Made by a program: the position numbers and the translations under genes. The notes beneath the pieces are model-generated. The model saw nothing but the letters and a program-made list of their open reading frames with translations. It had not been told where the DNA came from and searched no databases. Source: an uncultured Chloroflexia bacterium (GTDB taxonomy: Bacteria; Chloroflexota; Anaerolineae; Anaerolineales; Anaerolineaceae). Taken from it: a stretch of DNA of 64,000 nt. The first letter of the stretch is position 1. Every line of letters starts with the position of its first letter. Below, piece by piece: positions 33 through 33,003 of this stretch. The DNA lies in NCBI GenBank assembly GCA_963708715.1, contig CAVPSU010000001.1, forward strand, positions 736,000-799,999, written 5' to 3'.

Positions 33-104
33 GGGTGCGTAGCTCAATGGTAGAGCAGTGGCCTTTTAAGCCATTGGTTAAGGGTTCGAGCCCCTTCGCA
101 CTCA
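33..104 (+). tRNA. tRNA-Lys (anticodon UUU)
   Basis: Hand-folded cloverleaf: acceptor GGGTGCG/CGCACTC (one G-T pair), D arm GCTC-AATGGTA-GAGC, anticodon stem GTGGC/GCCAT with loop CTTTTAA (anticodon TTT at 65-67), T arm AAGGG-TTCGAGC-CCCTT, discriminator A. No encoded CCA. Confidence 0.85.
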
Positions 105-9205: not shown

Positions 9206-10838
9206 CTACTCAATTCGAATCCTGTCGCCATTAATTTCCCATAATAAAGTAGCAAATTGCTGAATAAAATAGCGATCATGCGTAACAACCAAAACGGTAC
9301 CTTCGAATGAAGATAATGCCTGTTCGAACCGATTTCGGGAGGGAATATCGAGGTGGTTAAGCGGTTCATCCAAAATTAGAAAATTGCAACCTGAGGCAGA
9401 CATCGCAGCCATCATTAACCGCGCCCTCTCACCATAAGAAAGTTGATTAATAGGGACAAACACAGCATCACCAGTAAACAGGTATTTATGCAGGAATGTT
9501 CGGGCGGCTGTCTCATTCTGTTTGCCTTGGCTCTGAATGAACTCAAGGGCATTCAAATGTAATGGAAGGCTGCTTTGATCTTGCTGCATGTAACCAGTTT
9601 TGACACGCGAACCCAGCTGGATTCGCCCATGCAGTGGGTCGATCTCACCCAGAATAGTGCGTATGAAACTGGTTTTCCCGCTGCCATTGGGTCCCAGCAG
9701 GCAGCAGCGAGGACCCGTATCGGAGGACCAGATCGATATTCCTGAGCAACACCTGCCCGGTATAACCCACAGATAGATTCTCGCATACCAACACATCTCT
9801 TCCTGATTCGGCTGGGTCTTTGAAGTTCAATCTCAATTGCCAACCTGTTTTCGGTTTTTCAATTCGATCTTCAGTCAGTAGTTTTTCCAGTTTATCTTCC
9901 AATTGGATCGCTCTTCCCAGAGTTGCCTTGCCACGATTCGCGAAAAAACCCCGTGCAAACTTGTCTCCCGAATCCGCTTTCCCACCACGCCGAAATGTAG
10001 CGATCCGGTGTAGATGAGCAGCCGCCGCACGGAGCTGATTAATCTCATCCAACTGATCCTGGTATGCTGACCGATGGCGTTCCTTTTCACGGACTTTTTC
10101 TTCCAGGTACTGCGAGAAATTACCTGAATATAACTTTGTCTTCCGGCTGGATGGATCCAACTCCAGGATCGCCGAACAAACACGATCTAAGAAGACCCGG
10201 TCATGGGAAACCATCAACACGGCGCCTGGGAATTCAAACAACCAATTCTCCAGCCATTCCAACATGGCAATATCAAGATGATTAGTTGGCTCATCGAGGA
10301 TCAGGAGGTCAGGCTGCAGGAAAAGGGTTCCTGCAAGCGCAAGACGGGTTTTCTGTCCTCCGCTGAGGTGATTGACCGGAAAATCAAAGGGGACACGATC
10401 CAGCCCAAGCCCCGATAGGATCTTCTTTAAGGTGGGTTCGAGATTGGATTTACGCTCGATCTGAATAAGAATGTGATTGTATTCCTCTTGAACCATGGGA
10501 TTGTTTGGTTGTATCGCCATCTCGTGGGATATATGGACGAGCCGGGCATCCAACCCGGTTTCAATCTCCGCAAGCTGGTCAAGATACTGTTCAACTGTGA
10601 CATCTTCCGGGTATGTATATCCCTGAGGTAGATAGGCTTTGATCAGATCCGTCGGTATGTACTGAAAAGTCCCCGAATCCGCTTTTTCTACTCCGATCAA
10701 TATACGCAGAAGGGTACTCTTTCCGCACCCGTTCGGTCCTACCAGACCGAATTTATCTCCATACTGCATGGAGAAAATTACTTCGTCGAGGATTGTATTC
10801 AATTGATACGATTTGGAGATCCGATTTACTGAAAGCAT
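9206..10838 (-). pseudogene. ABC-F family ATPase, two cassettes split by an apparent 1-nt frameshift near 9705-9725
   Basis: ORF 9645-10871 carries cassette 1 plus the linker and ends ...LLRNIDLVLRYG. ORF 9206-9796 continues in the +1 frame with ...LLGPNGSGKTS (Walker A of cassette 2), the signature motif and Walker B. Confidence 0.75.
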
Positions 10839-11017
10839 TGCCAACCTCTTCAAAAAACATAACCGGGGCAAATGCCCCCGGCCAGGATTAAATCCAAGTA
10901 CACCGAGATAACTACCCGATACCTGTGGATTAGAGGTTTTTGTCCATTGTTTCTACATGCTCCTTTGCGTTACAAACCAATTATATCAAGGAACCTGCAT
11001 CAAGCGCAATTAATAGA

Positions 11018-11049
11018 ATCAGTTCCCGCTCGAAGGAACGGGAACTGAT
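11018..11049 (-). terminator. stem-loop downstream of the decahaem cytochrome gene
   Basis: ATCAGTTCCCG-10 nt-CGGGAACTGAT. Confidence 0.5.
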
Positions 11050-11075: not shown

Positions 11076-13220
11076 TTATTTCGGACGGGTCATTCCGGTG
11101 ACAGATCCACCGAGGTCTTTGATGCCGTCATAGAGGAACTGCATCACATACTTCGGATTGTGGATGTAGGCACCTGGATCCTTTACCACATAGTGGTAAT
11201 TGTAACCAGCCGCGAACAATTTAGGTGAGAAGAGGTTGTAAGCAATGTTGGCACCCTTGTCGTCCTTGTCCGGTTTTCCATCCGCGTCCTGATCGAGCAG
11301 GATGTATGGGCGAGCATTCGCATCGTAAACAAAGGGAGAACCAAGTTTTGTCGTGGCGTAGTTTTGCATCGCCGCTAACAATTTCTCTTTCATCGTCTCG
11401 ACTTCGCCGTAGATGCCTTCGGTGGTATCACCATCGCCATCATAGTCGGTCTTATCCATGCGGATCTTGGTAGGATCGTTCACCTGGTGGCATCCCGCGC
11501 ATGCATCCAGTTTGGGCTCCAGTGCATGAACATCATGGCAGCTGGAGCATGTCTGGAAGTTTTCAACATGCAGGAACTTACCCACATAGGTCTGACCAGG
11601 GTATTCATAGACGCCCTTTGCATCGGTTCCAAAGAGAGTGGAACCAGCCGCAAAGTAGTGGACATTGATGAATTTGAGTTTGTCAGAAGCAGTATCCGGA
11701 GCCATTCCATCGATGGCTTTTGTTACTGCTGAGCCGGATTGGCGTCCCTGGTGGCAGGTGATGCACAGGTTGTTCGGATCGCCTTCACCGAAAGTGACAG
11801 CTAATCCACTTGGGAAAGTGACCTCATTGAGTTTATAGAGACCAGGCCAGGCGGCTTCATCATGGCAGGTACTGCATGCGAAACCATTGCTGGTTGGCAC
11901 CATGATATTGGTTCCGTTCTCAATGAATTGCGGCATACCAGAAGCAGAGTGGCATTTGGCACAATCAGCTTCCACCTTGCCTTCTGCATCCCAGTGACGG
12001 AATGCTTCACTGTTACCAGCGAAGTGACCACTATCATCACGCGCCAATTTGGTCATATCGACCGGGGCAGCAAGTTTCGTGTTCAAATCTTCAATCGAGT
12101 CGAAGAGTAGTTGAACAATGTACTTGTTACCATGGGCATACGCGCCAGGATCCTTGACCGAAAGCTGGTAGTTATACGCCGCTTTCAACAATCGAGGAGT
12201 CCAGGATTTGTATGCGTTCGGGAAGACAGCTTCCGCTTCATCGGTCTTGCCATCGGCATTGGTGTCGATGAAGAAGTACGGATACACATCCCTGGTGTAG
12301 ACGATGGCTGATTTAGCCACATCTTTACCATACACCTGAAGCGCGCCGTAGAGGGCAGTCTGGAGACCTTCGATCTCGTAGAACATGCCTTCTTTGACGT
12401 CACCATCCCCATCATAATCGCGGAGAGAAGATGGCTCACGAACGTTCTTCAGATCTTCGACAGCCTTCACATCAGAGTGACAGCCAGTACATTCCTGAAC
12501 CTTGACTTCGAGAGAGTGAGAGTCATGGCAGGCTGTGCAGGTATCATAGCTTTCGACGTGATCATTCTTGGCGTCGTATGATTTGCCTTCATATTGATAG
12601 CCACCTTTTACCTCACCAGCATACATGGTAGCTGCTGCAGCAAAGTAGTGAATATTTGTGAAGGGTGCATCCGCGATAACCGTATCAGGTTCTTTATCTT
12701 TTGTGGCTTCATCCACCTGAACCATAGATGCCATACCCTGGTGACAGGTCATGCAGACTGCCTCTTCGCCGAGTCCCTTGATTTCAACACCAGAGGGGAA
12801 AACGACCGAGGTCAGCTTGGCAGTACCTTCATTATGGCAGGTATCACAGGTAAGGACGGTGCCGATGGCTGCAACTTTATCAACTGCCATCGCTGCGCTG
12901 CCATCCGCGCCAACAAAATCTTTGAAACCGTCACTGCTATGGCATTTGGCACAAGTCGGAGGTATCTCTTTTGGATCTTCCTCATTCCAGTGCGTGAATG
13001 CTGCAGCTTTTGAATCTGCATGCCCGGAGGCTTGCCAGACGGCGGCAAAGGGCGCCTTCACACCGGTGTCCGCCCCGGACTGAGCAGGCTGGGCTGGACA
13101 GGGTGTGGTCTCTGGGCACTTCTGCGGTTCTGCAGTGGCGGCTGGTGTTTGAGGCTGGCAAGCGACGACAATAAAAGCCAACCCAATTACCAAACCTACA
13201 ATGATCAATATTTTCTTCAT
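11076..13220 (-). CDS. decahaem c-type cytochrome lipoprotein (two tandem pentahaem modules)
   Basis: Ten CxxCH motifs: CAKCH, CDTCH, CMTCH, CTACH, CTGCH, CAKCH, CSTCH, CITCH, CSSCH, CAGCH. Signal peptide MKKILIIVGLVIGLAFIVVAC, with GGAGA RBS before the ATG at 13220. Confidence 0.85.
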   Translation of the reverse strand: MKKILIIVGLVIGLAFIVVACQPQTPAATAEPQKCPETTPCPAQPAQSGADTGVKAPFAAVWQASGHADSKAAAFTHWNEEDPKEIPPTCAKCHSSDGFKDFVGADGSAAMAVDKVAAIGTVLTCDTCHNEGTAKLTSVVFPSGVEIKGLGEEAVCMTCHQGMASMVQVDEATKDKEPDTVIADAPFTNIHYFAAAATMYAGEVKGGYQYEGKSYDAKNDHVESYDTCTACHDSHSLEVKVQECTGCHSDVKAVEDLKNVREPSSLRDYDGDGDVKEGMFYEIEGLQTALYGALQVYGKDVAKSAIVYTRDVYPYFFIDTNADGKTDEAEAVFPNAYKSWTPRLLKAAYNYQLSVKDPGAYAHGNKYIVQLLFDSIEDLNTKLAAPVDMTKLARDDSGHFAGNSEAFRHWDAEGKVEADCAKCHSASGMPQFIENGTNIMVPTSNGFACSTCHDEAAWPGLYKLNEVTFPSGLAVTFGEGDPNNLCITCHQGRQSGSAVTKAIDGMAPDTASDKLKFINVHYFAAGSTLFGTDAKGVYEYPGQTYVGKFLHVENFQTCSSCHDVHALEPKLDACAGCHQVNDPTKIRMDKTDYDGDGDTTEGIYGEVETMKEKLLAAMQNYATTKLGSPFVYDANARPYILLDQDADGKPDKDDKGANIAYNLFSPKLFAAGYNYHYVVKDPGAYIHNPKYVMQFLYDGIKDLGGSVTGMTRPK

Positions 13221-13538
13221 AGTTCGCATTCTCCTAGACATTTTTTGAAGTCTGGTCATCTCCGTAATTCTTAGAAACACCACCTCCTTAATTTGGAAAT
13301 AAAAAAAGACGAGGGAAATCTACTTCACTCACAATAGATTATAGCCAGAGGCATAGATTAATACAATATTAAAATCAGATGACAATTCTCTTAATTTTGA
13401 TATGCTTCCAGCAGGTAAATCGTCACTTAAGGACAATATTGGTCTAAATAAACCATTTTCTCTCACTTCAATTTAATCTCCATATGGCAAAATGACGCAA
13501 GGCATATCCTGCTTATTGTTATTGAATTTAAATCAATC

Positions 13539-14087
13539 ATGGAGAAAAACAGTATGAATTCGACGGATGCCCATGCCAAATCCGCACTCCCTTCAACAGG
13601 GGCGAAATGGAAGTTTATTGTAGGAGGATTACTGATCCTTGCTGCTGTCGTGTACCTCATCATCTCATCCACTCAGGCAAATGCACAGTATTTTTTAACT
13701 GTTGAGGAGTTAAACCAAAAAGCAGGGCAGATGGCTGGTCGCGAGATCCGTATCTCTGGCGCGGTGATCGGCGAATCAATTGTCTATGACCCTCAAACGC
13801 TCGATTTATCCTTCGAAGTTGTCCATATTCCTGCTGACAATAAGGAAATTGAAGCTCAGGGTGGACTAGCGAATGTGCTTCATGATGCGATCATGAATAC
13901 CAGCGCGCCCAGACTGAAAGTCGTCTATAACGGACCTCGACCTGACCTTCTTAAAAATGAAGCACAGGCAATTATGACGGGAACTCTTGATCCAAACGGT
14001 GTATTCCACGCTGAGGAATTATTATTAAAATGTCCCAGCCGCTATGAAGAAGCACTTCCCAGCCAATCAGAACAATCGAGCAATTAA
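13539..14087 (+). CDS. ccmE: cytochrome c maturation haem chaperone CcmE, Cys-type (CxxxY) variant
   Basis: N-terminal TM anchor and OB-fold-sized body. C-terminal LLLKCPSRYEE replaces the usual HxxxY haem-binding motif. Located in the ccm cluster. Confidence 0.8.
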   Translation: MEKNSMNSTDAHAKSALPSTGAKWKFIVGGLLILAAVVYLIISSTQANAQYFLTVEELNQKAGQMAGREIRISGAVIGESIVYDPQTLDLSFEVVHIPADNKEIEAQGGLANVLHDAIMNTSAPRLKVVYNGPRPDLLKNEAQAIMTGTLDPNGVFHAEELLLKCPSRYEEALPSQSEQSSN

Positions 14088-14192
14088 CCGGTATGATTTG
14101 TCCAGGCATCTTCTAACAATCATCGCACGGAATAAGCAGGGTTGCTTATTCCGTTTGCATTTATTGATAGTACTGGTCCTGACGGAGAGTGT

Positions 14193-16202
14193 ATGATAGT
14201 TCAATTTGGATATGGGGTTCTGGTTATTGCGCTAGCATTAACTGCCTATGCGGCGTTTGCTTCGATCTACGGTGGAGTAAAGAAAGATCGTCGGTTGGTA
14301 GATTCCTCCCGATTGGCGATGATCAGTATTTTCCCACTCATTACGATGGGTGTACTGACCTTGATCTATTTATTAGTCAAGGGCGATTATACCGTTTCGT
14401 ACGTATATTCTGTAACCAGCAACTCCATGCCGATCTATCTCCGAATAACTGCTTTGTGGGGTGGACAATCAGGATCCTTACTTTTTTGGAGTTGGTTGAT
14501 GGCTGCCTTTGCATTCGCAGTCAGTTTACGGAATTGGGATCGGGATCGCGAGTTCTTGCCCTGGGTTATTTTCGTTCCCGCGGTTACCCTCGGCTTTTTC
14601 TTGAGCATGGTCATCTTCATTGAAAATCCATTCGTGAGGTTTTGGGCAAGCGGAATGGGTCAGCAATTTGAATCCATGTTTCAACCGGCAGGGGCAGATC
14701 TCATCCTTCCTCCGGACGGGCGTGGTCTTAATCCACTATTACGACACCCGGGCATGATTATCCACCCTCCAATGCTCTATCTCGGATTTGTCTCATTCGT
14801 CATCCCCTTTGCCTTTGCTGTTGCTGCCCTGGTTACAGGTCGTACCGACGATCGCTGGATCCGTCTTACCCGCCGCTGGACTCTGGTTGCCTGGCTTTTC
14901 CTCACCATTGGATTGGTGCTTGGGATGCGTTGGGCGTACGATGTCCTCGGATGGGGTGGGTACTGGGGTTGGGATCCGGTAGAGATCGCCGCACTTATGC
15001 CCTGGCTTACCGGAACCGCATTGTTGCACTCGGTCATGATTCAGGAAAAACGGGGAATGTTCAAGCAATGGAATATGCTGCTCACCATCCTCACTTATGA
15101 TCTCGTCATCTACGGCACTTTCCTGACTCGCTCAGGTGTTTTATCTTCGGTACATGCGTTCGCTCAATCACCAGTCGGGCCTCTGTTTTTTGGGTTTATT
15201 GCCCTCACCCTCCTTGCGTCGGTTGGGTTGCTGATCTATAGGTGGAAAGACCTTAGAGCAGAAGCGTCCCTCAAATCGGTTCTTTCGCGAGAATCTCTCT
15301 TCCTTGTGAATAACCTGCTTTTTATGGGCATATTTATCGTTTGTTTCTGGGGTGTCAACTTCCCATTAATCTCTGAACTCGTCACCGGACAGAAAGTGAC
15401 TGTCGGACCGCCATTTTACATCAGGGCAACCGGTCCCCTCTGGGGAGGTATCCTGCTGTTGATGGGAATCGCCCCACTCTCTGCCTGGACAATCACATCC
15501 GCAAAAACGTTAGGTAGAACGATCTGGAAAGCCCTGGCGCTGTCCTTTGTGGTTCCTATCATACTGCTTGCCACTGGAATGCGCAGTTTTGCGGCCATTC
15601 TTGGATTTTGGTTGATCACTCTTGTCATTTTGGTCACATTATACGAATATGGGCGGAGTATACGCGCAAGAGCTCGCTCGTCGCGTGAAAATATATTGCA
15701 GGCTATCTGGAATCTTACCAGCCGTAACCGCCGAAGGTATGGTGGATATATCATCCACCTGGGTATCGTCTTCATGGGATTGGGTATTATTGGCATAGAG
15801 GCATTTCAGACCCAAACTCAGGGAACCCTATCACCCGGGCAGGAATTGAGGGTCGGCGACTATGCAGTTACGTATAAAGGATTAGCTGAATTTGACGCCT
15901 CTGATGGACGAAATGTTGCCAGAGCTGTCCTATCTGTCAATAAAAATGGTACAGATTTAGGAGAACTTTACCCACGCCGTGATTTCTTCTATGATGCTCA
16001 ACAAACCATGACCATTCCAGGTGTTCGCAGCACGATGGAAGATGATCTCTATGTCATCCTGGTAGATTGGCAACCAATCTCGACCCGAATGGCTACCTTT
16101 AAGGTGTACCATAATCCATTAGTGAACTGGTTATGGCTCGGCAGCCTTGTATTGATTTTCGGCTCACTTATCGCCGTATGGCCTACGCCCGAAAAAGATT
16201 AA
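14193..16202 (+). CDS. ccmF: cytochrome c haem lyase subunit CcmF
   Basis: Polytopic protein of about 670 aa with the WWD motif WGGYWGWDPVE. ATG at 14193 follows a GGAGAG RBS. Confidence 0.85.
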   Translation: MIVQFGYGVLVIALALTAYAAFASIYGGVKKDRRLVDSSRLAMISIFPLITMGVLTLIYLLVKGDYTVSYVYSVTSNSMPIYLRITALWGGQSGSLLFWSWLMAAFAFAVSLRNWDRDREFLPWVIFVPAVTLGFFLSMVIFIENPFVRFWASGMGQQFESMFQPAGADLILPPDGRGLNPLLRHPGMIIHPPMLYLGFVSFVIPFAFAVAALVTGRTDDRWIRLTRRWTLVAWLFLTIGLVLGMRWAYDVLGWGGYWGWDPVEIAALMPWLTGTALLHSVMIQEKRGMFKQWNMLLTILTYDLVIYGTFLTRSGVLSSVHAFAQSPVGPLFFGFIALTLLASVGLLIYRWKDLRAEASLKSVLSRESLFLVNNLLFMGIFIVCFWGVNFPLISELVTGQKVTVGPPFYIRATGPLWGGILLLMGIAPLSAWTITSAKTLGRTIWKALALSFVVPIILLATGMRSFAAILGFWLITLVILVTLYEYGRSIRARARSSRENILQAIWNLTSRNRRRYGGYIIHLGIVFMGLGIIGIEAFQTQTQGTLSPGQELRVGDYAVTYKGLAEFDASDGRNVARAVLSVNKNGTDLGELYPRRDFFYDAQQTMTIPGVRSTMEDDLYVILVDWQPISTRMATFKVYHNPLVNWLWLGSLVLIFGSLIAVWPTPEKD

Positions 16203-16232
16203 CGGTCAAACTAGCATGGAACGAGGAAATGT

Positions 16233-16724
16233 ATGAGAAGGAAATGGTATTGGCTTGCCTTTCTTACTGCCATGGTATTGGCGGGAATTTCCATCTCCCA
16301 GGCTGCCGCGCAGGAAAAAACGCCAATCACTGACGACCAGGTGAATGAAGTTGCCCGGCAACTTTATTGCCCGGTGTGTGAGAACACCCCTTTGGACGTT
16401 TGCCCAACCACTGCTTGCGCCCAATGGCGCGCCCTCATCCGCGAGAAACTGGAATTGGGTTGGTCGAATGATCAGATTAATACCTATTTTGTGACCCAGT
16501 ACGGTGACCGAGTATTATCAGAACCTCCCCGCCGAGGATTAAATTGGTTGGTTTACGTGCTTCCTCCCGTAGTAATCCTTATTGCTGCTTTATTCCTCGT
16601 TTTTATGATCCGGAGAATGAAAATGACTGCACAAAGCAATAAAGTGCATACCGTTCAACCAATCTTGCCCGATGACGAATATCTGGCACAAATTGAAAAA
16701 GAAATCCATTTGCGAGAAAAATAA
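16233..16724 (+). CDS. ccmH: CcmH/NrfF-family cytochrome c maturation protein
   Basis: Signal peptide, LYCPVCEN redox motif, then a C-terminal TM helix. Confidence 0.75.
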   Translation: MRRKWYWLAFLTAMVLAGISISQAAAQEKTPITDDQVNEVARQLYCPVCENTPLDVCPTTACAQWRALIREKLELGWSNDQINTYFVTQYGDRVLSEPPRRGLNWLVYVLPPVVILIAALFLVFMIRRMKMTAQSNKVHTVQPILPDDEYLAQIEKEIHLREK

Positions 16725-16727
16725 CGA

Positions 16728-17303
16728 ATGAATAATCCCATCCCAGACGATCGATCCGAGATAAGCCCACCTCGCAGACAATTGCCAATCGCAGCGATGG
16801 TTCTGGCTGCAATTGTTCTCGGTGGTTTTTTATTATTCCTCTATTTTGGTTTACAACGGACATATCAGGGTCCGGTCAGGGTAAGCGAACCGGTCAAGCC
16901 ATTCGCAATTAAGACCTTTGATGGTGAGGTTATCAATACGTCCGAACAGGCGGGAAAAGTTATCCTTGTTAATTTTTGGGCTTCCTGGTGTAAACCATGT
17001 GAAAGTGAAGCAGGATTTCTACAAAAAGCATGGGAATACTACCAACCCGGTGGAGAAGTCCTCTTTCTGGGTGTGGATTATGTGGATACTGAACCAGAAG
17101 CAAAAGCATCCCTGGAGAAATTTGGTATCACTTTCCCAAATGGTCCTGACCTGGGTACACGTATCTCTCAAGAATTCCGTATTCGCGGAGTGCCAGAAAC
17201 ATATATCGTAAAAAAAGATGGAACCCTTGGTTATATTCAAATAGGTCCATTTAGTTCTCTCAAAGATATCCAGGACAAGATAGACCCACTTCTTAATGAG
17301 TAA
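16728..17303 (+). CDS. ccmG: membrane-anchored thiol:disulfide oxidoreductase (CcmG/DsbE/TlpA family)
   Basis: TM anchor plus a thioredoxin fold with WASWCKPC. Confidence 0.75.
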   Translation: MNNPIPDDRSEISPPRRQLPIAAMVLAAIVLGGFLLFLYFGLQRTYQGPVRVSEPVKPFAIKTFDGEVINTSEQAGKVILVNFWASWCKPCESEAGFLQKAWEYYQPGGEVLFLGVDYVDTEPEAKASLEKFGITFPNGPDLGTRISQEFRIRGVPETYIVKKDGTLGYIQIGPFSSLKDIQDKIDPLLNE

Positions 17304-17320
17304 AGCGAGATAGGAGCAAC

Positions 17321-17827
17321 ATGGAAATTGAAGCCATCCTATTGTTATCTGCGGTCATGCTGATCGTGTTCGCGGTGATCATCCGCCCATGGATGCCTGT
17401 ACAGAATAATTCAGGAAAAAACCGAACATCACGACCATCGACAAACCAACAATTTTCGGTATGGCTTGCCGAAAAAGAACGATTATTGAATATGATCCAG
17501 GAATTGGATTTCGACCACGAGACAGGGAAGATACCGGACGACCTATTCAATGAACAACGATCGGATTTGGTGCAATCTGCTGCAAATGTTTTGAGACAAC
17601 TTGCGGAAAACGGATATATTGAGACAAACCACTCAAAGCGAATCGTCGAGGATATTTCCAAACCTGCAAGTACCCATGAGTATGATGATTTGGATGAATT
17701 GATCGCAAAGCGCAGGCTGGAAAAAAATGGGAAGGCGACCGGTTTTTGCCCTAAATGCGGAAACCCGCTTCAAGTCAGTGATCGATTTTGCCCCAAGTGC
17801 GGAACGACGATTTATGCTGCAAACTAA
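17321..17827 (+). CDS. membrane-anchored protein with C-terminal double zinc ribbon
   Basis: N-terminal TM helix, a helical segment LLNMIQELDFDHETGKIPDDLFNEQRSDL, then C-terminal FCPKCGNPL...FCPKCG. Confidence 0.6.
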   Translation: MEIEAILLLSAVMLIVFAVIIRPWMPVQNNSGKNRTSRPSTNQQFSVWLAEKERLLNMIQELDFDHETGKIPDDLFNEQRSDLVQSAANVLRQLAENGYIETNHSKRIVEDISKPASTHEYDDLDELIAKRRLEKNGKATGFCPKCGNPLQVSDRFCPKCGTTIYAAN

Positions 17828-17830
17828 TCC

Positions 17831-19748
17831 ATGAGATATCATTCTCTGTTATTTTTCTCCTTCGCAACATTAATTCTTACCGGATGCGGCTTTTCCCTGG
17901 CAGGGGATGTAACTCCTCCACCCGGATATACACCACCCGTTTCTGTCGCTGTGAAAGCTACATCTTCGGTCTTTCCACTTATTCCTGCTAATCCAGAACA
18001 AGGGAAGAACTATTTATCTGCAAGAATGTGCGGGGTGCCATGGAGTGACCGGTCGGGGGGACGGCGACCAATCGGGTAATTTGCCAAAGCCGCCACAAAT
18101 CTTGACCGACCCAAAGGTGATTGCGAATACCTCACCGGCACAATTGTTTTCTATAGTCACCGACGGGATACCTGAAAACAATATGCCCGCATTTAGTGCT
18201 GTGCTTGATGATCGGGCAAGATGGGATGTGACATCCTATTTATTTCTGATGGGTTCAGATGAGACTGACCTCTCTGCCGGAAAAGTGATATTTGATTCTA
18301 TCTGTGCCGGGTGTCACGGTCTGCTTGGAAAAGGCGATGGTGAGACTGCGCGCGGATTACCGCTCCAACCCCCAGATTTTACGAATCAAAGCATTCTTTC
18401 ACCCAGAACAAACCAGGAATTATTCCAGATCGTAACCAGCGGATCCGCGAATGTAATGCCCTCCTTCGAGAAGTCGTTGACCTCAGATGAGCGTCAGAAC
18501 GTCGTTCAATATGTCCGAACATTATCGTTCCTCAAGGTGGTGGTCCCATCATTACCTCTCCCTCAACCGATAGAAAACCCTCCGGTTGATGACCAGGGAG
18601 GTACGCCTCAAGCTGAAAACGGAGTAACTCAAAGTGATATTTCTGTTACTCCTGAACAGGTATATATTTCCGGCAAGGTGATTAATGATTCCGGCGCGAA
18701 TCTCCCGGAGAATTTGGAAATCACTCTTCATATTTTCGATCAAATGGCCGAAACATCCACAGCGAAAACAAAAATCATGACTGGCGGTAGTTTCGACTTT
18801 GGCCAGGTTGAGATGAAAGCCGGCAGGATATTTATTGCATCCGTCATGTATGATGGACGTGAGTTCAATTCACAGCCATCATTCCATCCGGGATTGGTCC
18901 AAGATGGGGAAGATTTTGTTCAACCTGAGAACGTTACCCTGGATGTGCATATATCCGACTCGACCACGGACATTTCAGCACTAAGCGCGGACCGTATGCA
19001 CCTATTCATTGATTTCCCCCAGCCCGGGATGATGCAGGTCGTTACATTATTTCTGATCTCAAATAACGGTAATGAAGTTGTTGTACCCTCAAAAGATGGT
19101 TCTGAAAGTTTGCAATTTCTACTCCCTGAGGGTGCTACCAATCTCCAATTCGATGACAGCACTCTGGGCGAACGATACATGCCGATTGACAATGGGTTTT
19201 TTGATACGGTTGCGATCCCACCCGGAAAAAGCTCACACCAGGTATTATTTGCTTATGATCTGCCCTACGAGAAGAAAGCAACCATCAACGTTCCAATTGC
19301 CCTCAAGACCAGCTCTGTAAGTGTAATGATCCCGTTTGGAGGGGTCACATTGAAGAGTGGACAATTGGTGGATGGCGGGGTGCGGAGTAGCCAACAAATG
19401 TCTTTCCAGGTTTACAATGGTTCTGATTTTGGCGCGGAAGACAATTTAGTTCTGAACCTCTCGGGATCACCACAGGCAGGAGCCAGTCCACAAAAAATAA
19501 GCATTAATCCCGTCCTGTTTGGATCAGGTGTATTGATCCTGGTTATCACGGGTATACTATATTATTACTTCTGGCGTAAAGATAAACCAGCTCAGCAAAT
19601 ATTCACCCCTGGAGAACTCCCAACAAAAGAAGCGATCATGGACGCAATTCTATCTCTGGATGAACAGTATAAATCCGGGAATCTGAACGACACAGTGTAT
19701 CAACTCCGTCGATCAGAGCTAAAAGAACAATTACGGAAACTGATGTGA
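17831..19748 (+). pseudogene. dihaem c-type cytochrome lipoprotein with large extracytoplasmic domain and C-terminal TM; apparent 1-nt frameshift near 18005-18012
   Basis: Frame 1 (17831-18079) gives the lipoprotein signal MRYHSLLFFSFATLILTGC...ANPEQGK. The other frame reads ...GRTIYLQECAGCHGVTGRGDGDQSG upstream of the GTG at 18045. A second CAGCHG motif lies downstream. Confidence 0.7.
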
Positions 19749-20446
19749 TTCAAGTCGATCATCTAGTGAAACGGTTCGGGGCGAAAACCGTCCTTTCAAA
19801 TCTGGATTTTCAGGTGGAGGAAGGCGAATTTGTCGCTCTCATGGGTCCAAACGGTGCAGGGAAGACTACTTTTCTTAGAATCCTCTCTTCCTTGATGAAA
19901 CCAACGTACGGAACGGTCATTGTGGCTGGATATCATCTGCCTGCACAATCTGCTGCCGTTCGCAGCCGGATGGGAATTGTTTCCCATTTACCTCTCCTGT
20001 ATGGCGACCTGACAGCGGAAGAAAACCTGCGGTTTTTTGGCATGATGTATTCAGTGCTTGATCTCAAGACGAGGATCAGTTCTGTTCTGGACTTGATCGG
20101 ATTAGCCAACCGAAAAGCTGACCTTGTTCGTACTTTCTCGCGAGGCATGCAGCAACGGTTGGCCATTGGTAGAGCAATCCTCCATGATCCGGCTGTCCTT
20201 CTTCTGGATGAGCCACATACCGGTTTAGATCAAGATGCCTGTGAAATGCTGGATCGCCTGCTCCGTGAAGTGGCTGCCACCGGACGAACGGTCGTTATGA
20301 CCAGCCATGACCTTGCCAGGGTCCAGGATCTGGCACGCCGGTTCGATGTCTTATCTCGCGGAAAGATCGTAGCCTCCATCTCAGCCGAACAGCTACCTGC
20401 GGATGGCTTATTAGCCTATTATCGCCAGGCATTGGAGGGAAAATGA
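19745..20446 (+). CDS. ccmA: haem exporter ATP-binding protein CcmA
   Basis: Walker A GPNGAGKTT, signature FSRGMQQRL, Walker B LLLDEP. Overlaps the ccmB start. Confidence 0.75.
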   Translation: MIQVDHLVKRFGAKTVLSNLDFQVEEGEFVALMGPNGAGKTTFLRILSSLMKPTYGTVIVAGYHLPAQSAAVRSRMGIVSHLPLLYGDLTAEENLRFFGMMYSVLDLKTRISSVLDLIGLANRKADLVRTFSRGMQQRLAIGRAILHDPAVLLLDEPHTGLDQDACEMLDRLLREVAATGRTVVMTSHDLARVQDLARRFDVLSRGKIVASISAEQLPADGLLAYYRQALEGK

Positions 20447-21138
20447 CCACGGTGGTACCATCCAAACCCTCTTTCTTTCAAGCCATGGGAGCGGTAGTCT
20501 GGAAAGATCTGACCGCGGAAATCCGCAGCCGTGAGATCTTTTCTGCTATGCTGGTCTTCGCATTACTCGTCGTGTTGATCTTCAATTTCGCGCTGGAACT
20601 GGAAGCAGGTACTCGAGCGACGGTTGCAGCCGGCGTCCTTTGGGTTACTTTTACCTTCGCCGGTACTATTGGATTGAACCGCTCGATGGCTTCAGAGAAA
20701 GACCGCGGCTGTCTGGATGGTTTGCTCCTGGCGCCAGTCGATCGCAGCGCGATCTATTTTGGGAAGATGGTGGGCAACCTGATTTTCATGCTCATTGTGG
20801 AAGCAGTCGTGATCCCGGTATTCAGCCTGCTCTACAATATAAATTTGATCAACCCGGGATTGATTGCCGTGACCTTGCTTGGATCGATTGGATATATTGC
20901 TGTTGGGACATTACTATCTGCCATGGCAGTCGAGGCTCGTACCCGGGATATCTTATTACCGATCCTGCTTTTTCCGGTCGTTATACCCGTTGTGGTTGCT
21001 GCGGTAAAAGCCAGCACAGGATTTATTCAGAGAATTCCGCTGGATGAAATTACACCCTGGCTTAATCTGCTCGTGGTATATGATATTATTTTTCTGACTG
21101 TAGCCTGGATGATTTTTGACAAGGTTGTTGAAGAATGA
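20443..21138 (+). CDS. ccmB: haem exporter membrane protein CcmB
   Basis: 231-aa, 6-TM protein between ccmA and ccmC, with 4-nt overlaps on both sides. Confidence 0.75.
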   Translation: MTTVVPSKPSFFQAMGAVVWKDLTAEIRSREIFSAMLVFALLVVLIFNFALELEAGTRATVAAGVLWVTFTFAGTIGLNRSMASEKDRGCLDGLLLAPVDRSAIYFGKMVGNLIFMLIVEAVVIPVFSLLYNINLINPGLIAVTLLGSIGYIAVGTLLSAMAVEARTRDILLPILLFPVVIPVVVAAVKASTGFIQRIPLDEITPWLNLLVVYDIIFLTVAWMIFDKVVEE

Positions 21139-21854
21139 TCTCGAAAGGAAAGCCTATGCGCAATTCAATTGATCGATTGAAAATACTGGATATCATCGCT
21201 CTTATTCTTTTGCTGCTTGTAACATTGATGGTCTTTTTCTATGCCCCGATCGAACGAGTTATGGGTTTGGTGCAAAAGATCTTCTATTTCCATGTGGCTA
21301 CTGCCTGGGTAGGAATGCTCTCTTTCATTGTTGCCGCTGTCGCCGGTGGAATATACCTTAAGCAGGGCACCAAGAAATGGGACCACCTGAGCTATGCATC
21401 TGTTGAGATAGGGATTGTATTCGCTCTCGTCGCGATTGCCACGGGTTCCATCTGGGCTCGCCCGATATGGAATACCTGGTGGACCTGGGATCCCCGTCTG
21501 ACTACAGCTGCTATTATGGCGTTAGTATATGTCGCCTACCTCATGTTACGGCAGGGGATTGATGACCCAGAAAAACGAGCTCGGTTTGGCGCTGTCTACG
21601 CTATTATTGGTGCACTGAGCGTCCCGCTGACATTCCTTTCAATCCGGATATTTCGAACCATCCACCCGGTTGTGATCGGTGTTCCCGGTAACACCTCTGC
21701 TGCGTTTGAGATGGCTCCCCGTATGCTACAGACCTTTTTATTCGGATTGTTGGTCTGGTCAATTATCTTTATCGACTTGTTGTGGCACCGGATGCGGCTC
21801 GCCAACCTGGCCGATGAAGTGGAACATGCAAGATTGAGCAACCAGGATATCTAG
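21135..21854 (+). CDS. ccmC: haem exporter/haem-handling protein CcmC
   Basis: WWD motif IWNTWWTWDPRL; polytopic, 239 aa. Confidence 0.8.
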   Translation: MISKGKPMRNSIDRLKILDIIALILLLLVTLMVFFYAPIERVMGLVQKIFYFHVATAWVGMLSFIVAAVAGGIYLKQGTKKWDHLSYASVEIGIVFALVAIATGSIWARPIWNTWWTWDPRLTTAAIMALVYVAYLMLRQGIDDPEKRARFGAVYAIIGALSVPLTFLSIRIFRTIHPVVIGVPGNTSAAFEMAPRMLQTFLFGLLVWSIIFIDLLWHRMRLANLADEVEHARLSNQDI

Positions 21855-29525: not shown

Positions 29526-31772
29526 ATGTCCGTCTATGGATATCAGGTTTCCCCAGAACGGAAGATGGACATCATCGGGGTGTTCCTTCTTCTGGCAGGA
29601 TTATTAGCTGCATTGAGTTTATTTGCTGGCAAAGATAACCCAATCACTGCCTGGGTTTCAGGAGTCTTACGCTGGATGACCGGCTGGGGTGTCTGGATCA
29701 TCCCTCTGGCAATCATGATCCCAGGTATCTATCTCATCCTTAGACGGGTTGAATCGCTACCACGTTTACCTTTTGAGCAAATAGCAGGGCTGGTATTACT
29801 GTATCTGAATATCCTGGCGTTTTTCCATTATTTCGCAGGTGGGGCAGTGGATCCCTATCTTCTTGCTGAGGATGGAAAGGGCGGCGGATTGGTTGGCGGG
29901 ATAATTATCCAGTTGTTGGTCGCGGGATTGGGAGATATCGGCGCTTTTCTGGTATTGTGCGCCTGGCTTCTGGTTTCCCTTATTTTCTCTTTTGATATTT
30001 CATTCCAACAAATTGCAAACGGTGTAGGTGGTTTCTTCGGAATCGTCAAAGCATCCACACCCGAAGGCACTAACCTCTTTGATGGTTTACGGACCGGTTT
30101 CAGCGAATGGAAAAATGCGATACGGGAAACCGTGACGATAGACACCGATGATTCTCAAGAGGAGGAAGAAACCATACAGGATGGATTCCAGCCGATAAAG
30201 GGTTCGATCCAAACAATCGATGGAATAGCCTCCCCTGAGATCGCACCAAGTATCGATATTCAACCAGTGGATCCTGTTTGGAAACTGCCGGAACCCGAGA
30301 AAATCCTTGAGCATGGTTCTCCTCAGGTTGAAAATGAAAAAATGGATCTGGAGCGAGCTCGGATGATCGAGGGAACTCTAGCCGACTTTGGAGCTCCAGG
30401 ACATGTTGTGGAGATCCTTCGCGGTCCATCCGTAACCATGTTCGGTGTGGAACCAGACTTTGTAGAAAACCGCAGTGGTAATCATATGCGGGTCAGGGTT
30501 TCAAAAATTGTTTCACTCCAGGATGATCTGGCATTAGCACTGGCGGCAACCAGAATTCGAATTCAGGCTCCAGTGCCGGGACGAAATTATATCGGGATTG
30601 AAGTACCTAACGACCATAAGGCAATGGTTCGTTTGCGGGATGTTGTGGAAAGTCCGTCTTTCAAACGGATCAGGACATCGTTGAAAATTGCCCTGGGTAA
30701 AGATGTATCCGGTGTACCCATTGCTACCGACCTATCGGCCATGCCACACTTACTCATTGCCGGAACGACCGGTTCAGGTAAATCTGTCTGTGTTAATGCA
30801 ATATTGAGCTGCCTTCTGCTCAACAATACTCCGGACGACCTCCGATTGATCCTTGTTGATCCCAAACGAGTGGAGTTCACCAATTACAATGGCATACCTC
30901 ACCTGCTCGCCCCGGTTGTTGTCGAAGCAGATCGGGTTATTGGGGCACTGCAATGGATGCTGCGCGAAATGGATGCCCGTTATCATAAGTTTTCTGCGGC
31001 GGGAGCTCGAAACCTGGAGGATTACAATGTCCGGATGCAGTTGCGGGGCGAAAAGAAGTTGCCAATGCTTGTCATCGTCATTGATGAATTGGCAGATTTA
31101 ATGATGCTCGCCCCTGCTGAAACCCAGGCAGCCATCACCCGTTTGGCGCAAATGGCACGCGCAACCGGTTTACACCTGGTCGTCGCCACCCAGCGTCCGT
31201 CGACCGATGTCATTACCGGATTGATCAAAGCGAATTTCCCTGCCCGAATTGCATTCTCAGTTGCCACTATGATCGATAGCCGTGTGATTCTCGATCAGCC
31301 AGGGGCTGAACAGCTGCTTGGGCATGGTGATATGCTATTTCAGGCGCCTGATGCTGCTGCGCCAGTCCGATTGCAGGGTGTCTATGTGTCCGACAGTGAG
31401 ATCCAAAGGCTTGTGGATTACTGGCGCGGGATCGTTATTGACCAGGCTGAAAGTAATTTTGAAGAGGGGGCGAACGAAGATCTGCCTCCTGCGAACATGT
31501 TGAAACAAGTGGACTTCTGGAGTCCTGGGGGAAGCTTAGGTAGGAGCAATGAAGACCCCTTATTGAGTGAAGTGACCGAACTTGTCCGGAGGGAAGGTCG
31601 CGCTTCGATCTCTATGCTGCAACGTCGTATGCGGATCGGATACACCCGGGCAGCCCGTCTGATCGATCGCATGGAAGAATTAGGAATCATCAGCGCTTCC
31701 CAGGCAAATTCTCAGACTCGCGAAGTATTGGATTATGGGCAGACGATTCCGCCCGAGGATGATGGAGCTTGA
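29526..31772 (+). CDS. ftsK: DNA translocase FtsK/SpoIIIE
   Basis: N-terminal TM domain, Walker A GTTGSGKS, Walker B VIVIDELADL, and a C-terminal gamma (winged-helix) domain SISMLQRRMRIGYTRAARLID. Confidence 0.9.
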   Translation: MSVYGYQVSPERKMDIIGVFLLLAGLLAALSLFAGKDNPITAWVSGVLRWMTGWGVWIIPLAIMIPGIYLILRRVESLPRLPFEQIAGLVLLYLNILAFFHYFAGGAVDPYLLAEDGKGGGLVGGIIIQLLVAGLGDIGAFLVLCAWLLVSLIFSFDISFQQIANGVGGFFGIVKASTPEGTNLFDGLRTGFSEWKNAIRETVTIDTDDSQEEEETIQDGFQPIKGSIQTIDGIASPEIAPSIDIQPVDPVWKLPEPEKILEHGSPQVENEKMDLERARMIEGTLADFGAPGHVVEILRGPSVTMFGVEPDFVENRSGNHMRVRVSKIVSLQDDLALALAATRIRIQAPVPGRNYIGIEVPNDHKAMVRLRDVVESPSFKRIRTSLKIALGKDVSGVPIATDLSAMPHLLIAGTTGSGKSVCVNAILSCLLLNNTPDDLRLILVDPKRVEFTNYNGIPHLLAPVVVEADRVIGALQWMLREMDARYHKFSAAGARNLEDYNVRMQLRGEKKLPMLVIVIDELADLMMLAPAETQAAITRLAQMARATGLHLVVATQRPSTDVITGLIKANFPARIAFSVATMIDSRVILDQPGAEQLLGHGDMLFQAPDAAAPVRLQGVYVSDSEIQRLVDYWRGIVIDQAESNFEEGANEDLPPANMLKQVDFWSPGGSLGRSNEDPLLSEVTELVRREGRASISMLQRRMRIGYTRAARLIDRMEELGIISASQANSQTREVLDYGQTIPPEDDGA

Positions 31773-31851
31773 GATAGAAAAATCAGTAATTAGTAAATGG
31801 AAAATTGGAAAGAGATGGATGAAGAAACAATCTTTCCAATTTGGGAAAAAG

Positions 31852-31880
31852 AAAAAGCTCATTTTTGTGAGCTTTTTTTT
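31852..31880. terminator. bidirectional stem-loop (ftsK on +, tRNA-Ser plus repeat array on -)
   Basis: A5-AGCTCA-TTTTTG-TGAGCT-T7. Confidence 0.6.
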
Positions 31881-32384
31881 GGCGGAGAGTGGCTGCTTGC
31901 GCCCTCGGAGCCTGGTTTCGTAGGCGGAGAGTGGCTGCTCGCGCCCTCGGAGCCTGGTTTCGTAGGCAGAGAGTGGCTGCTTGCGCCCTCGGAGCCTGGT
32001 TTCGTAGGCGGAGAGTGGCTGCTCGCGCCCTCGGAGCCTGGTTTCGTAGGCGGAGAGTGGCTGCTCGCGCCCTCGGAGCCTGGTTTCGTAGGCGGAGAGT
32101 GGCTGCTTGCGCCCTCGGAGCCTGGTTTCGTAGGCGGAGAGTGGCTGCTTGCGCCCTCGGAGCCTGGTTTCGTAGGCGGAGAGTGGCTGCTTGCGCCCTC
32201 GGAGCCTGGTTTCGTAGGCGGAGAGTGGCTGCTTGCGCCCTCGGAGCCTGGTTTCGTAGGCGGAGAGTGGCTGCTTGCGCCCTCGGAGCCTGGTTTCGTA
32301 GGCGGAGAGTGGCTGCTTGCGCCCTCGGAGCCTGGTTTCGTAGGCGGAGAGTGGCTGCTTGCGCCCTCGGAGCCTGGTTTCGTA
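31881..32384. repeat. 12 x 42-bp head-to-tail tandem repeat abutting the tRNA-Ser 3' end
   Basis: Unit is GGCGGAGAGTGGCTGCTTGCGCCCTCGGAGCCTGGTTTCGTA. Copies start at 31881 + 42n. The only variants are T>C at unit position 18 (copies 2, 4, 5) and G>A at position 4 (copy 3). Confidence 0.95.
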
Positions 32385-32386
32385 GG

Positions 32387-32474
32387 CGGAGAGGGTGGGA
32401 TTCGAACCCACGGTGGTCCAGAGGGCCACAACGGTTTTCGAGACCGCCCCGATCAACCACTCCGGCACCTCTCC
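32387..32474 (-). tRNA. tRNA-Ser (anticodon CGA), class II with long variable arm
   Basis: Minus-strand sequence GGAGAGGTGCCGGAGTGGTTGATCGGGGCGGTCTCGAAAACCGTTGTGGCCCTCTGGACCACCGTGGGTTCGAATCCCACCCTCTCCG. Acceptor GGAGAGG/CCTCTCC, anticodon loop CTCGAAA, T arm GTGGG-TTCGAAT-CCCAC, discriminator G. Confidence 0.85.
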
Positions 32475-32551
32475 TGCAGGCGATATTATATCAGAGAAAA
32501 TTTATGGGATGGTATCTGTCAGTGATTACCATCCCATTTATCATTTGCTCA

Positions 32552-33003
32552 CTACTCTTCTAGTTCGAAGATCAAGGGATTGATTCCTGGCCAATGCAGT
32601 TCGTAGGTTTTTAAATTTTCCGGAACACGGAACCCGATCGAAAAATCTTCATCCACCCATCCCGCCATAGTTGTGATTGTTTTGGAGCTGTCATCACCCA
32701 GGATATATACTCCTTCGGGGACCTCCTGAATGGCGGTTTGAAAAGCGGCCAGATCAATTTGCCCGCCATCCGTCCTTTCGAGAACAACCAGCAGGAGCTT
32801 TTCATTCGGGGTTGGCTTGTTCCCATTCGCCTCGGGAACAATTCGCGCTGAGATAAATTTATAGTCCCCATTCGAGGTCGGGAGGGTATTATCACCTAAA
32901 GACCCTTTCCTTTGGTTGTGGTTGCAGTGGTTATCGCCTGTGAGCTGCAGGCTGATAGGGCAAATAAACAGATCAGTAGAATTGAAGTAGTTCGAATATT
33001 CAT
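32552..33003 (-). pseudogene. hypothetical lipoprotein; signal peptide and mature part lie in different frames (shift between 32896 and about 32915)
   Basis: ATG at 33003 (GGGGAG RBS) gives MNIRTTSILLICLFALSACSSQAITTATTTKGKGL, then a stop at 32896. The long ORF 32552-33025 is one frame away and has no signal peptide. Confidence 0.5.

Follow-up and report, generated by a model that had tools for sequence, protein, structure and literature searches.

A tandem-pentahaem lipoprotein cytochrome widespread in Anaerolineae, a candidate component of extracellular electron transfer

Analysis of a 64-kb stretch of DNA from an uncultured Chloroflexia bacterium (GenBank assembly GCA_963708715.1, contig CAVPSU010000001.1, positions 736,000 to 799,999; termed here the window and numbered from its first letter) revealed a minus-strand gene, 11076..13220, for a lipoprotein cytochrome c with ten haem motifs arranged in two tandem copies of one pentahaem module. 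The decahaem protein is characterized by several features: (i) an internal duplication of the module, (ii) one conserved candidate distal histidine for every haem, and (iii) in most relatives, linkage of its gene to genes of cytochromes that resemble the Geobacter proteins ImcH and CbcL. It is very probably a non-catalytic, membrane-tethered, extracytoplasmic electron-transfer protein, and we lean towards an electron chain that leads from quinol oxidases through this protein to an extracellular end point.

In anaerobic digesters, activated sludge, sediments and subsurface soils, few bacteria are as abundant as Anaerolineae, and they often occur on bioelectrodes and together with methanogens; to our knowledge, no molecular route of extracellular electron transfer (EET) has been defined for them. 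Large multihaem cytochromes of Anaerolineales have been noted in genome surveys (Hug 2013, PMC3971608; Arbour 2020, PMC7399161), and an envelope or surface multihaem cytochrome of a single-membrane bacterium is already known in OcwA and OmhA. A multihaem cytochrome in Anaerolineae is no surprise in itself; the tandem-pentahaem architecture is distinct. The literature that we found on characterised decahaem cytochromes of Anaerolineae consists of genome inventories. No paper was found that defines the family, the tandem module, the acidic loops or the linkage with ImcH-like and CbcL-like cytochromes, and the decahaem family goes unmentioned in a 2025 survey of how multihaem modules evolved.

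Sequence anatomy and internal duplication

The product of the decahaem gene has 714 amino acids including the signal peptide. The longest open reading frame (ORF) at this position, 11076..13283 on the minus strand, opens with GTG; the ATG at 13220 is a credible better start, because AGGAG lies 10 nt upstream of it and the homologue P0001, 94% identical, opens with MKKIL as well. Homologues begin at the same MKK as the decahaem protein. The ATG yields exactly the 714-residue product, 11076-13220, of an original prediction that had been made from the letters of the window alone. The mature cytochrome has 693 residues, an apoprotein mass of 74.9 kDa and an acidic pI of 4.9. A terminator-like hairpin with a 14-bp stem (11018..11049, minus strand) is located 27 nt past the stop codon, which suggests that the gene is monocistronic.

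The N-terminus and the two modules, all encoded on the minus strand, agree with the original prediction, which had named a lipoprotein signal (VVAC), ten CxxCH motifs in two colinear modules and conserved blocks flanking them. The signal peptide (13158..13220; MKKILIIVGLVIGLAFIVVAC) ends in VVAC at aa 18-21, satisfying the lipobox rule [LVI][ASTVI][GAS]C after a basic N-terminus and a hydrophobic core, and Cys21 is kept in 70 of 85 relatives (82%). By this pattern the decahaem protein would be a bacterial lipoprotein, lipidated at Cys21. The signal peptide is followed by a 34-residue linker rich in Pro, Ala and Thr (aa 22-55; 13056..13157), which is probably disordered, as its predicted local distance difference test (pLDDT) score in the AlphaFold model is 34-36. 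The linker contains a cysteine pair, Cys35 and Cys41, in a CPxxxPCP motif (aa 35-42; nt 13095-13118) that is found in about 47% of the 85 relatives, the rest having Val or a gap there; this pair could form a disulfide or serve as an attachment site.

Each module comprises about 330 residues, a pentahaem core followed by a helical subdomain. Module 1 (aa 56-385; 12066..13055) carries CxxCH at aa 90, 125, 156, 228 and 244 (nt 12939-12953, 12834-12848, 12741-12755, 12525-12539 and 12477-12491), and module 2 (aa 386-714; 11079..12065) carries CxxCH at aa 420, 449, 486, 558 and 574 (nt 11949-11963, 11862-11876, 11751-11765, 11535-11549 and 11487-11501), with the motif sequences that had been predicted. 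The flanking blocks recur in both modules as FTNIHYFAA and FINVHYFAA, as FPSG, and as KDPGAYAHGNKY and KDPGAYIHNPKY, the latter pair sharing KDPGAY(A/I)H.

Alignment of the two halves (residues 41-370 against 371-714) gave 39% identity over 317 positions with a BLASTP E-value of 2e-75. The internal duplication of the pentahaem module, as the original prediction had proposed it, is therefore real and far past chance. Module 1 shares 57-77% identity with the first module of other species but only 40-47% with any module 2; since identity within a position exceeds identity between positions, the duplication is older than the divergence of the homologues compared.

The AlphaFold2 models were computed without haem and without ions. 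The full-length model has a mean pLDDT of 86.6 and a predicted TM-score (pTM) of 0.80, and a model of module 1 has values of 84.5 and 0.86, respectively. In these models, the helical subdomain of both modules consists of three long helices and a beta-hairpin. The protein is modelled as nearly all helix and loop, and DSSP assigns short strands only and no barrel.

Haem ligands and acidic loops

All ten haem motifs of the decahaem protein are CxxCH, with neither CxxCK nor any other atypical haem motif, and ten CxxCH are present in 84 of the 85 relatives. Outside these motifs, exactly five histidines per module are conserved at 98-100%: H67, H191, H221, H235 and H363 in module 1, and H399, H521, H551, H565 and H687 in module 2. 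A sixth histidine, H77 in module 1 and H409 in module 2, is replaceable by Tyr or Asp across the 85 relatives. One conserved distal His per haem and the lack of CxxCK thus make up the pattern of an all-bis-His electron-transfer cytochrome, and the protein would fit ten bis-His electron-transfer haems with no catalytic site.

Each pentahaem core is followed by an acidic DxDxDG loop, DYDGDGDVKEG in module 1 (aa 268-278; 12387..12419, minus strand) and DYDGDGDTTEG in module 2 (aa 592-602; 11415..11447, minus strand). In the AlphaFold model, loop 1 caps the N-terminus of the first long helix (279-300) of the helical subdomain. Its residues are strongly conserved in the 85 relatives (D268 100%, D270 88%, D272 88%, G273 98%, E277 100%), and the loop is modelled at a pLDDT of 88-93. 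We also observed a second acidic loop per module, missed in the original prediction and located in the hairpin of the helical subdomain: an EF-hand-like loop of pattern DxNxDGxxDxxE in module 1 (aa 319-330; 12231..12266, minus strand; DTNADGKTDEAE) and its counterpart in module 2 (aa 643-654; 11259..11294, minus strand; DQDADGKPDKDD).

The original prediction had placed DYDGDGD after each pentahaem block, as is indeed the case at aa 268 and 592, and had compared it with the calcium loops of dockerin and thrombospondin type 3 repeats. The calcium-loop pattern itself is exact, DYDGDG being a DxDxDG with Glu at +9 in both modules and 88-100% conservation across the relatives; the helical subdomains searched alone against Pfam at E <= 10 gave no dockerin, thrombospondin type 3, EF-hand or Excalibur match. 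The DxDxDG loops are plausible calcium sites.

Comparison with known multihaem cytochromes

The full protein matched Pfam only in short stretches, to the generic models c7, c3 and CIII, and a search of NCBIfam gave nothing above the curated cut-offs. The PDB, searched by sequence with the protein and with a 20-sequence module profile, returned chance matches only, such as a restriction enzyme and ribosomal protein S14. The expectation of the original prediction that the protein has no full-length match to a characterised family and is not MtrA, MtrC/OmcA or NrfB at the family level thus holds in these searches and by curated cut-offs. By the tests applied, the decahaem protein appears to fall outside every named family.

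MtrC and OmcA of Shewanella are, like the decahaem protein, ten-haem lipoproteins with two duplicated pentahaem units, and they act as electron conduits at the cell surface. In MtrC/OmcA, however, two beta-barrel domains alternate with the haem domains, whereas the decahaem protein is nearly all helix and loop, and the MtrAB partners of MtrC/OmcA contrast with the ImcH-like and CbcL-like partners of the decahaem family, in which no porin association was observed. Membership in MtrC/OmcA was rejected, as no PF22113 match was found at E <= 1 and DSSP of the model gave no barrel.

Several other families were rejected by their curated cut-offs: MtrA/DmsE (TIGR03508; 18.6 bits against a cut-off of 192.2), NrfB (NF008659 / TIGR03146; 10.7 bits against 184) and the hexadecahaem HmcA (NF045713; 28 bits against 400). 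Haems 1-3 of each module do resemble NrfB, with an hhalign probability of 91.7% over 76 columns. This likeness to NrfB, c3 and c7 cytochromes spans about a quarter of the module, and the helical subdomain with its acidic loops has no Pfam match at E <= 10.

The resemblance to the nitrite reductase NrfA is one of layout, five haems followed by long C-terminal helices. NrfA was rejected: all motifs are CxxCH, no Cytochrom_C552 Pfam match was found at E <= 1 and no NCBIfam match was obtained, and hhalign of the module profile against Escherichia coli NrfA gave a probability of 20.6%.

OcwA of Thermincola potens (PDB 6I5B) and OmhA of Carboxydothermus ferrireducens (PDB 6QVM) are likewise mainly helical multihaem cytochromes of single-membrane bacteria, and have been proposed or shown to be terminal EET reductases (PMC9250108). 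A Foldseek search with the full model ranked OmhA first (E 3e-3), then OcwA (E 5e-3, probability 1.0, 326 columns, about one module), followed by NrfA structures; with a single module, the top matches were NrfA at non-significant E >= 0.5 and TMq of 0.34-0.42. The original prediction had held the protein to be unlike OcwA. At the sequence level this stands, HMMER finding no similarity to OcwA or OmhA even with the module profile; at the fold level it was too strong, as the weak Foldseek neighbours are OmhA, OcwA and NrfA. We count it in favour of an electron-conduit role that the best, though weak, structural neighbours are Gram-positive surface cytochromes. Judged from these models, the decahaem protein may be a distant relative of the homologous NrfA/ONR/OcwA/OmhA group defined by Soares et al. 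2022 (PMC9250108), whose members have in common a haem core and backbone that can be superimposed and a C-terminal module of the NrfA type.

OcwA has nine haems and OmhA eleven, without internal duplication, whereas the decahaem protein has five plus five. OcwA and OmhA have two penta-coordinate haems (PMC9250108); here, the sequence points to one conserved distal His per haem. DxDxDG loops such as those found here are not reported for OcwA/OmhA in the literature consulted. Membership in OcwA/OmhA was rejected on the arrangement of ten haems as 5+5 and on the apparent single invariant distal His for each.

Distribution and forms of the module

In a word-indexed protein search, 8000 candidates were scored, 5012 of which reached E <= 0.001. 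Most of the 120 best candidates have about 700-750 residues, and the few that are named are called 'cytochrome c3 family protein' or 'hypothetical protein' and come from Anaerolineae. Relatives were found in at least 575 species-representative genomes. The best 80 of these genome matches are almost all labelled Chloroflexota/Anaerolineae and span Anaerolineales, Ardenticatenales, Promineifilaceae, Caldilineae and Thermoflexus, the isolate Thermanaerothrix solaris being included. The closest genome match listed is a 94%-identical gene of the Chloroflexota metagenome-assembled genome (MAG) MFD05942.bin.1.115, on contig CAVRIZ010000008.1; the Thermanaerothrix homologue (L010) is 56% identical, and Longilinea arvoryzae also carries a homologue. 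The closest match and the labels of the best 80 genomes confirm the Chloroflexi-like origin that had been guessed from the sequence. Among the best 80, one locus at 54% identity (L027, contig JANTGE010000095.1, 7.4 kb) comes from a MAG labelled Acidimicrobiia; because the contig is short, a binning error is more likely than horizontal transfer.

An exhaustive search with a single-module profile retrieved 2542 cluster representatives at E <= 1e-3 and 534 at E <= 1e-30. Among them are proteins of about 360 residues that consist of one module and have exactly five CxxCH, and triple-module proteins with fifteen haems, in one of which (P0121) the modules are preceded by a repetitive N-terminal region. 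The long relatives P0007 and P0021 have N-terminal Ig-like Big_2 domains (PF02368). The architecture of the decahaem protein is not unique to it; to judge by these searches, it is the two-copy form of a module that also exists singly and in triplicate and reaches beyond Chloroflexota. It is the module that forms the evolutionary unit, rather than the decahaem protein, and in Anaerolineae two copies are the prevailing form.

The module is also found in proteins of other types. In P0199 (789 aa) it is C-terminal and extracytoplasmic behind a Ser/Thr kinase, and in the large multidomain protein P0227 (1439 aa), one source name of which is Med/PBP1-type lipoprotein, it stands at the C-terminus. 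These fusions suggest that the module may also serve as a redox-sensing domain. In the alphaproteobacterium Limimaricola soesokkakensis, a single-module gene (locus L087, 8001-9089; NCBI name 'polyheme membrane-associated cytochrome C') is divergent from an nqr operon for the Na+-NADH:quinone oxidoreductase, a neighbourhood that is uninformative. Its product is presumably periplasmic in this double-membraned cell.

Partner cytochromes encoded beside the relatives' genes

Geobacter ImcH and CbcL take electrons from the quinol pool and export them from the cytoplasmic membrane, on the way to acceptors outside the cell. Calling and clustering of ORFs in 85 related loci and the window revealed cytochrome genes that recur beside the decahaem gene and resemble these proteins. 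The nonahaem partner (59 loci) has about 408 residues, nine CxxCH and usually transmembrane helices at both ends. The cytochrome b partner (50 loci) has about 390 residues, is of the formate dehydrogenase gamma/FdnI type and often has a C-terminal monohaem domain. The heptahaem partner (34 loci) has about 575 residues, an N-terminus like that of NapC/NrfH and mostly seven CxxCH.

Partners were counted within 10 kb in a fully flanked subset of 52 loci, with at least 9 kb on either side. At least one partner is present in 43 of the 52, nearly always on the same strand: the nonahaem cytochrome in 37, the FdnI-like cytochrome b in 33 and the heptahaem cytochrome in 25. The commonest gene orders are decahaem-heptahaem-nonahaem-cytochrome b (12 loci) and decahaem-nonahaem-cytochrome b (10 loci).

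In 33 of the 34 heptahaem partners, an atypical CX3CH motif (FCGxTCHTMPP) comes directly after the only transmembrane helix. A transmembrane region followed by an atypical CX3CH is the hallmark of ImcH given by Zhong and Shi, whose paper also describes an ImcH homologue of Anaerolinea thermophila that has a single transmembrane helix (PMC6295460). The heptahaem partner thus has the published ImcH pattern, its homology to the Anaerolinea protein being taken from that paper, and we describe it as ImcH-like. It shares with ImcH the NapC/NrfH-like N-terminus, the atypical CX3CH and six or more CxxCH, and differs in having one transmembrane helix, where Geobacter ImcH has three, and an extra C-terminal monohaem domain. 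Geobacter CbcL consists of nine c-type haems fused to a b cytochrome of the HydC/FdnI type (PMC6295460); the pair of nonahaem partner and FdnI-like cytochrome b has the parts of CbcL split over two genes.

Linkage to these ImcH-like and CbcL-like genes appears to be the strongest functional evidence for the decahaem family. No recurrently linked terminal reductase gene was found in the 85 loci, the conserved neighbours of which are cytochrome and ccm genes. In one locus (L005, 12397-15534), the decahaem gene is followed by genes for a Rieske protein, a cytochrome b and a 521-aa multihaem cytochrome, and more multihaem genes lie beyond this trio in a dense cytochrome island. By its gene content, the trio looks like a bc-type complex with a multihaem subunit.

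The ccm cluster and other genes of the window

A cluster for system I cytochrome c maturation (13539..21854, plus strand) is transcribed divergently from the decahaem gene, as had been predicted. The intergenic region between the decahaem gene and ccmE (13221..13538) has 318 bp and is the presumed promoter region, with weak consensus promoter matches only. The cluster begins with ccmE (13539-14087, plus strand) and ccmF (14142-16202, plus strand), continues with ccmH, a thioredoxin-like ccmG, a zinc-ribbon gene and a dihaem cytochrome c gene, and ends with ccmA, ccmB and ccmC. Its products match the Pfam families CcmE, CcmF_C, Cytochrom_C_asm, CcmH, Redoxin/Thioredoxin, ABC_tran and CcmB, which make up the system I set. 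A ccm cluster adjoins the decahaem gene in 12 relatives, with the divergent layout seen in L002 and L004, and the divergent cluster is the conserved neighbour in the lineage formed by the window gene and the loci L006 and L007, whose decahaem genes are 94% and 71% identical to it.

The zinc-ribbon gene (17321-17827, plus strand) and the dihaem cytochrome c gene (18045-19748, plus strand; 567 aa, a Cytochrome_CBB3-type Pfam match and two CxxCH) both sit within the ccm operon, downstream of the ccmG-like gene and upstream of ccmA, and the dihaem gene is in the same place in 13 related loci. The dihaem cytochrome could be a client of the maturation system or a redox partner.

The rest of the window is occupied by housekeeping genes (for FtsK, PolA, an RNase D-like protein and others). 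A gene for an ABC-F type ATPase (9206-10871, minus strand) is broken into two ORFs that overlap (408 and 196 aa) and both match ABC_tran, and the same gene is intact in L006 as one ORF of 563 aa (12319-14010); the split gene is either a frameshift pseudogene or reflects a sequencing or assembly indel. Two tRNA genes were found, at 32387-32474 (minus strand) and at 33-104 (plus strand), and the overlapping ORFs on both strands of 31680-32563, around the first of these, are probably mostly spurious.

Proposed function and alternative explanations

The following electron chain is proposed. The adjacent ccm system would attach the ten haems, and the lipid anchor together with the flexible linker of about 34 residues would keep the protein at the outer side of the single cytoplasmic membrane. 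Quinol oxidases of the ImcH type and of the split CbcL type, encoded elsewhere in the genome if present, would reduce the decahaem protein, and its two pentahaem cores would form a chain passing electrons outward through the envelope. The acceptor may be Fe(III) or Mn(IV) minerals, humics, an electrode, a syntrophic partner or a further cytochrome. One DxDxDG loop and one EF-hand-like loop per module would bind Ca2+ and stabilise the helical subdomain. The data show the sequence anatomy, the duplication, the conserved ligand set and loops, the spread over taxa and the gene linkage in relatives; the surface location, Ca2+ binding, bis-His ligation, which way the electrons flow and what accepts them are what we infer.

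The tethered, non-catalytic electron-transfer protein is the part of the scheme of which we are most confident; the complete chain to an extracellular end point is favoured with much more reserve. The original prediction had named the protein a candidate EET component, as a multihaem cytochrome at the cell surface of a presumably monoderm organism. The clustering with ImcH-like and split CbcL-like genes in most relatives adds indirect support to this candidacy, and the absence of these partners from the window counts against it. Reports on two genera provide circumstantial support: Ardenticatena maritima, of the same class, performs EET with surface cytochromes, the main one being a different, seven-haem protein (PMC5808234), and Thermanaerothrix, a carrier of the family, dominated an iron-cycling siderite consortium (PMC7729950).

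Several observations weigh against an EET role. A six-frame CxxCH count and tblastn with nine partner proteins found no partner cytochromes or their remnants in the window, which contains no other multihaem gene, and no partner quinol oxidase is encoded within 10 kb of the decahaem gene in L006 and L007. The functional link is thus missing from the window, and with the partners absent near all three genes the electron chain in this organism stays a proposal. Foldseek TM-scores to OcwA and OmhA are only 0.21-0.31. Haem ligation and Ca2+ binding are read from conservation, the models being haem-free. The single Limimaricola module beside nqr means that the module is not specific to a cell-surface role. 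Finally, many carriers of the family (Anaerolinea, Longilinea, Levilinea and Bellilinea) are described as fermenters and not as metal reducers.

The best surviving alternative, although we consider it unlikely, is an envelope electron hub or capacitor that passes electrons from quinol oxidases to terminal reductases or oxidases of the envelope (for nitrite, N2O, oxygen or sulfur compounds) and not to outside acceptors. The partner genes link the family to quinol-level transfer only and so leave the acceptor unset, and L005 has an adjacent Rieske/cytochrome b complex and more multihaem genes. The single-module form of Limimaricola, which is aerobic, would be periplasmic, and almost all Anaerolineae have the family, among them taxa with no known metal reduction. 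However, no terminal reductase recurs in the 85 loci, and the long, probably disordered linker, like the Big_2 domains found in some relatives, suggests that the protein reaches outward.

Still less probable is the reverse direction, in which the protein would be a conduit for electron uptake from Fe(II) minerals, cathodes or partner cells to the quinone pool. Ardenticatena shows cathodic as well as anodic EET (PMC5808234), and Thermanaerothrix was enriched on siderite (PMC7729950), but only quinol oxidation has so far been attributed to ImcH homologues (PMC6295460), and the direction cannot be set from sequence alone.

Least probable is a catalytic reductase of the NrfA/OcwA type that would turn over nitrite, hydroxylamine, sulfite or other small molecules at two active sites: the best Foldseek matches are to such proteins, the way in which the five haem motifs are spaced and the three long helices at the C-terminal end resemble NrfA, and NrfA has a Ca2+ site, but the ligand count (five invariant histidines for five haems per module, with no CxxCK) and the failed NrfA tests, including the non-significant single-module Foldseek matches, disfavour it.

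Significance

A conserved, widespread and unnamed family with linkage to putative quinol oxidases is a concrete, testable candidate for an EET route of Anaerolineae, and cultured carriers are available in Longilinea arvoryzae and Thermanaerothrix solaris. Among the matches, neither Pfam nor NCBIfam offered a family for the module itself, and no solved structure matched it by sequence, which makes it a target for family definition and structure determination. We advance only tentatively the broader idea that the family and the linked ImcH-like and split CbcL-like cytochromes might form a core EET pathway of Anaerolineae, specific to single-membrane cells and built around a calcium-stiffened wire, with the kinase-fused module acting as a redox sensor. 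If EET through the decahaem family is true, it would explain at the molecular level why these abundant 'fermentative' filaments of digesters, sediments and soils have long been suspected of electroactivity and of direct interspecies electron transfer.

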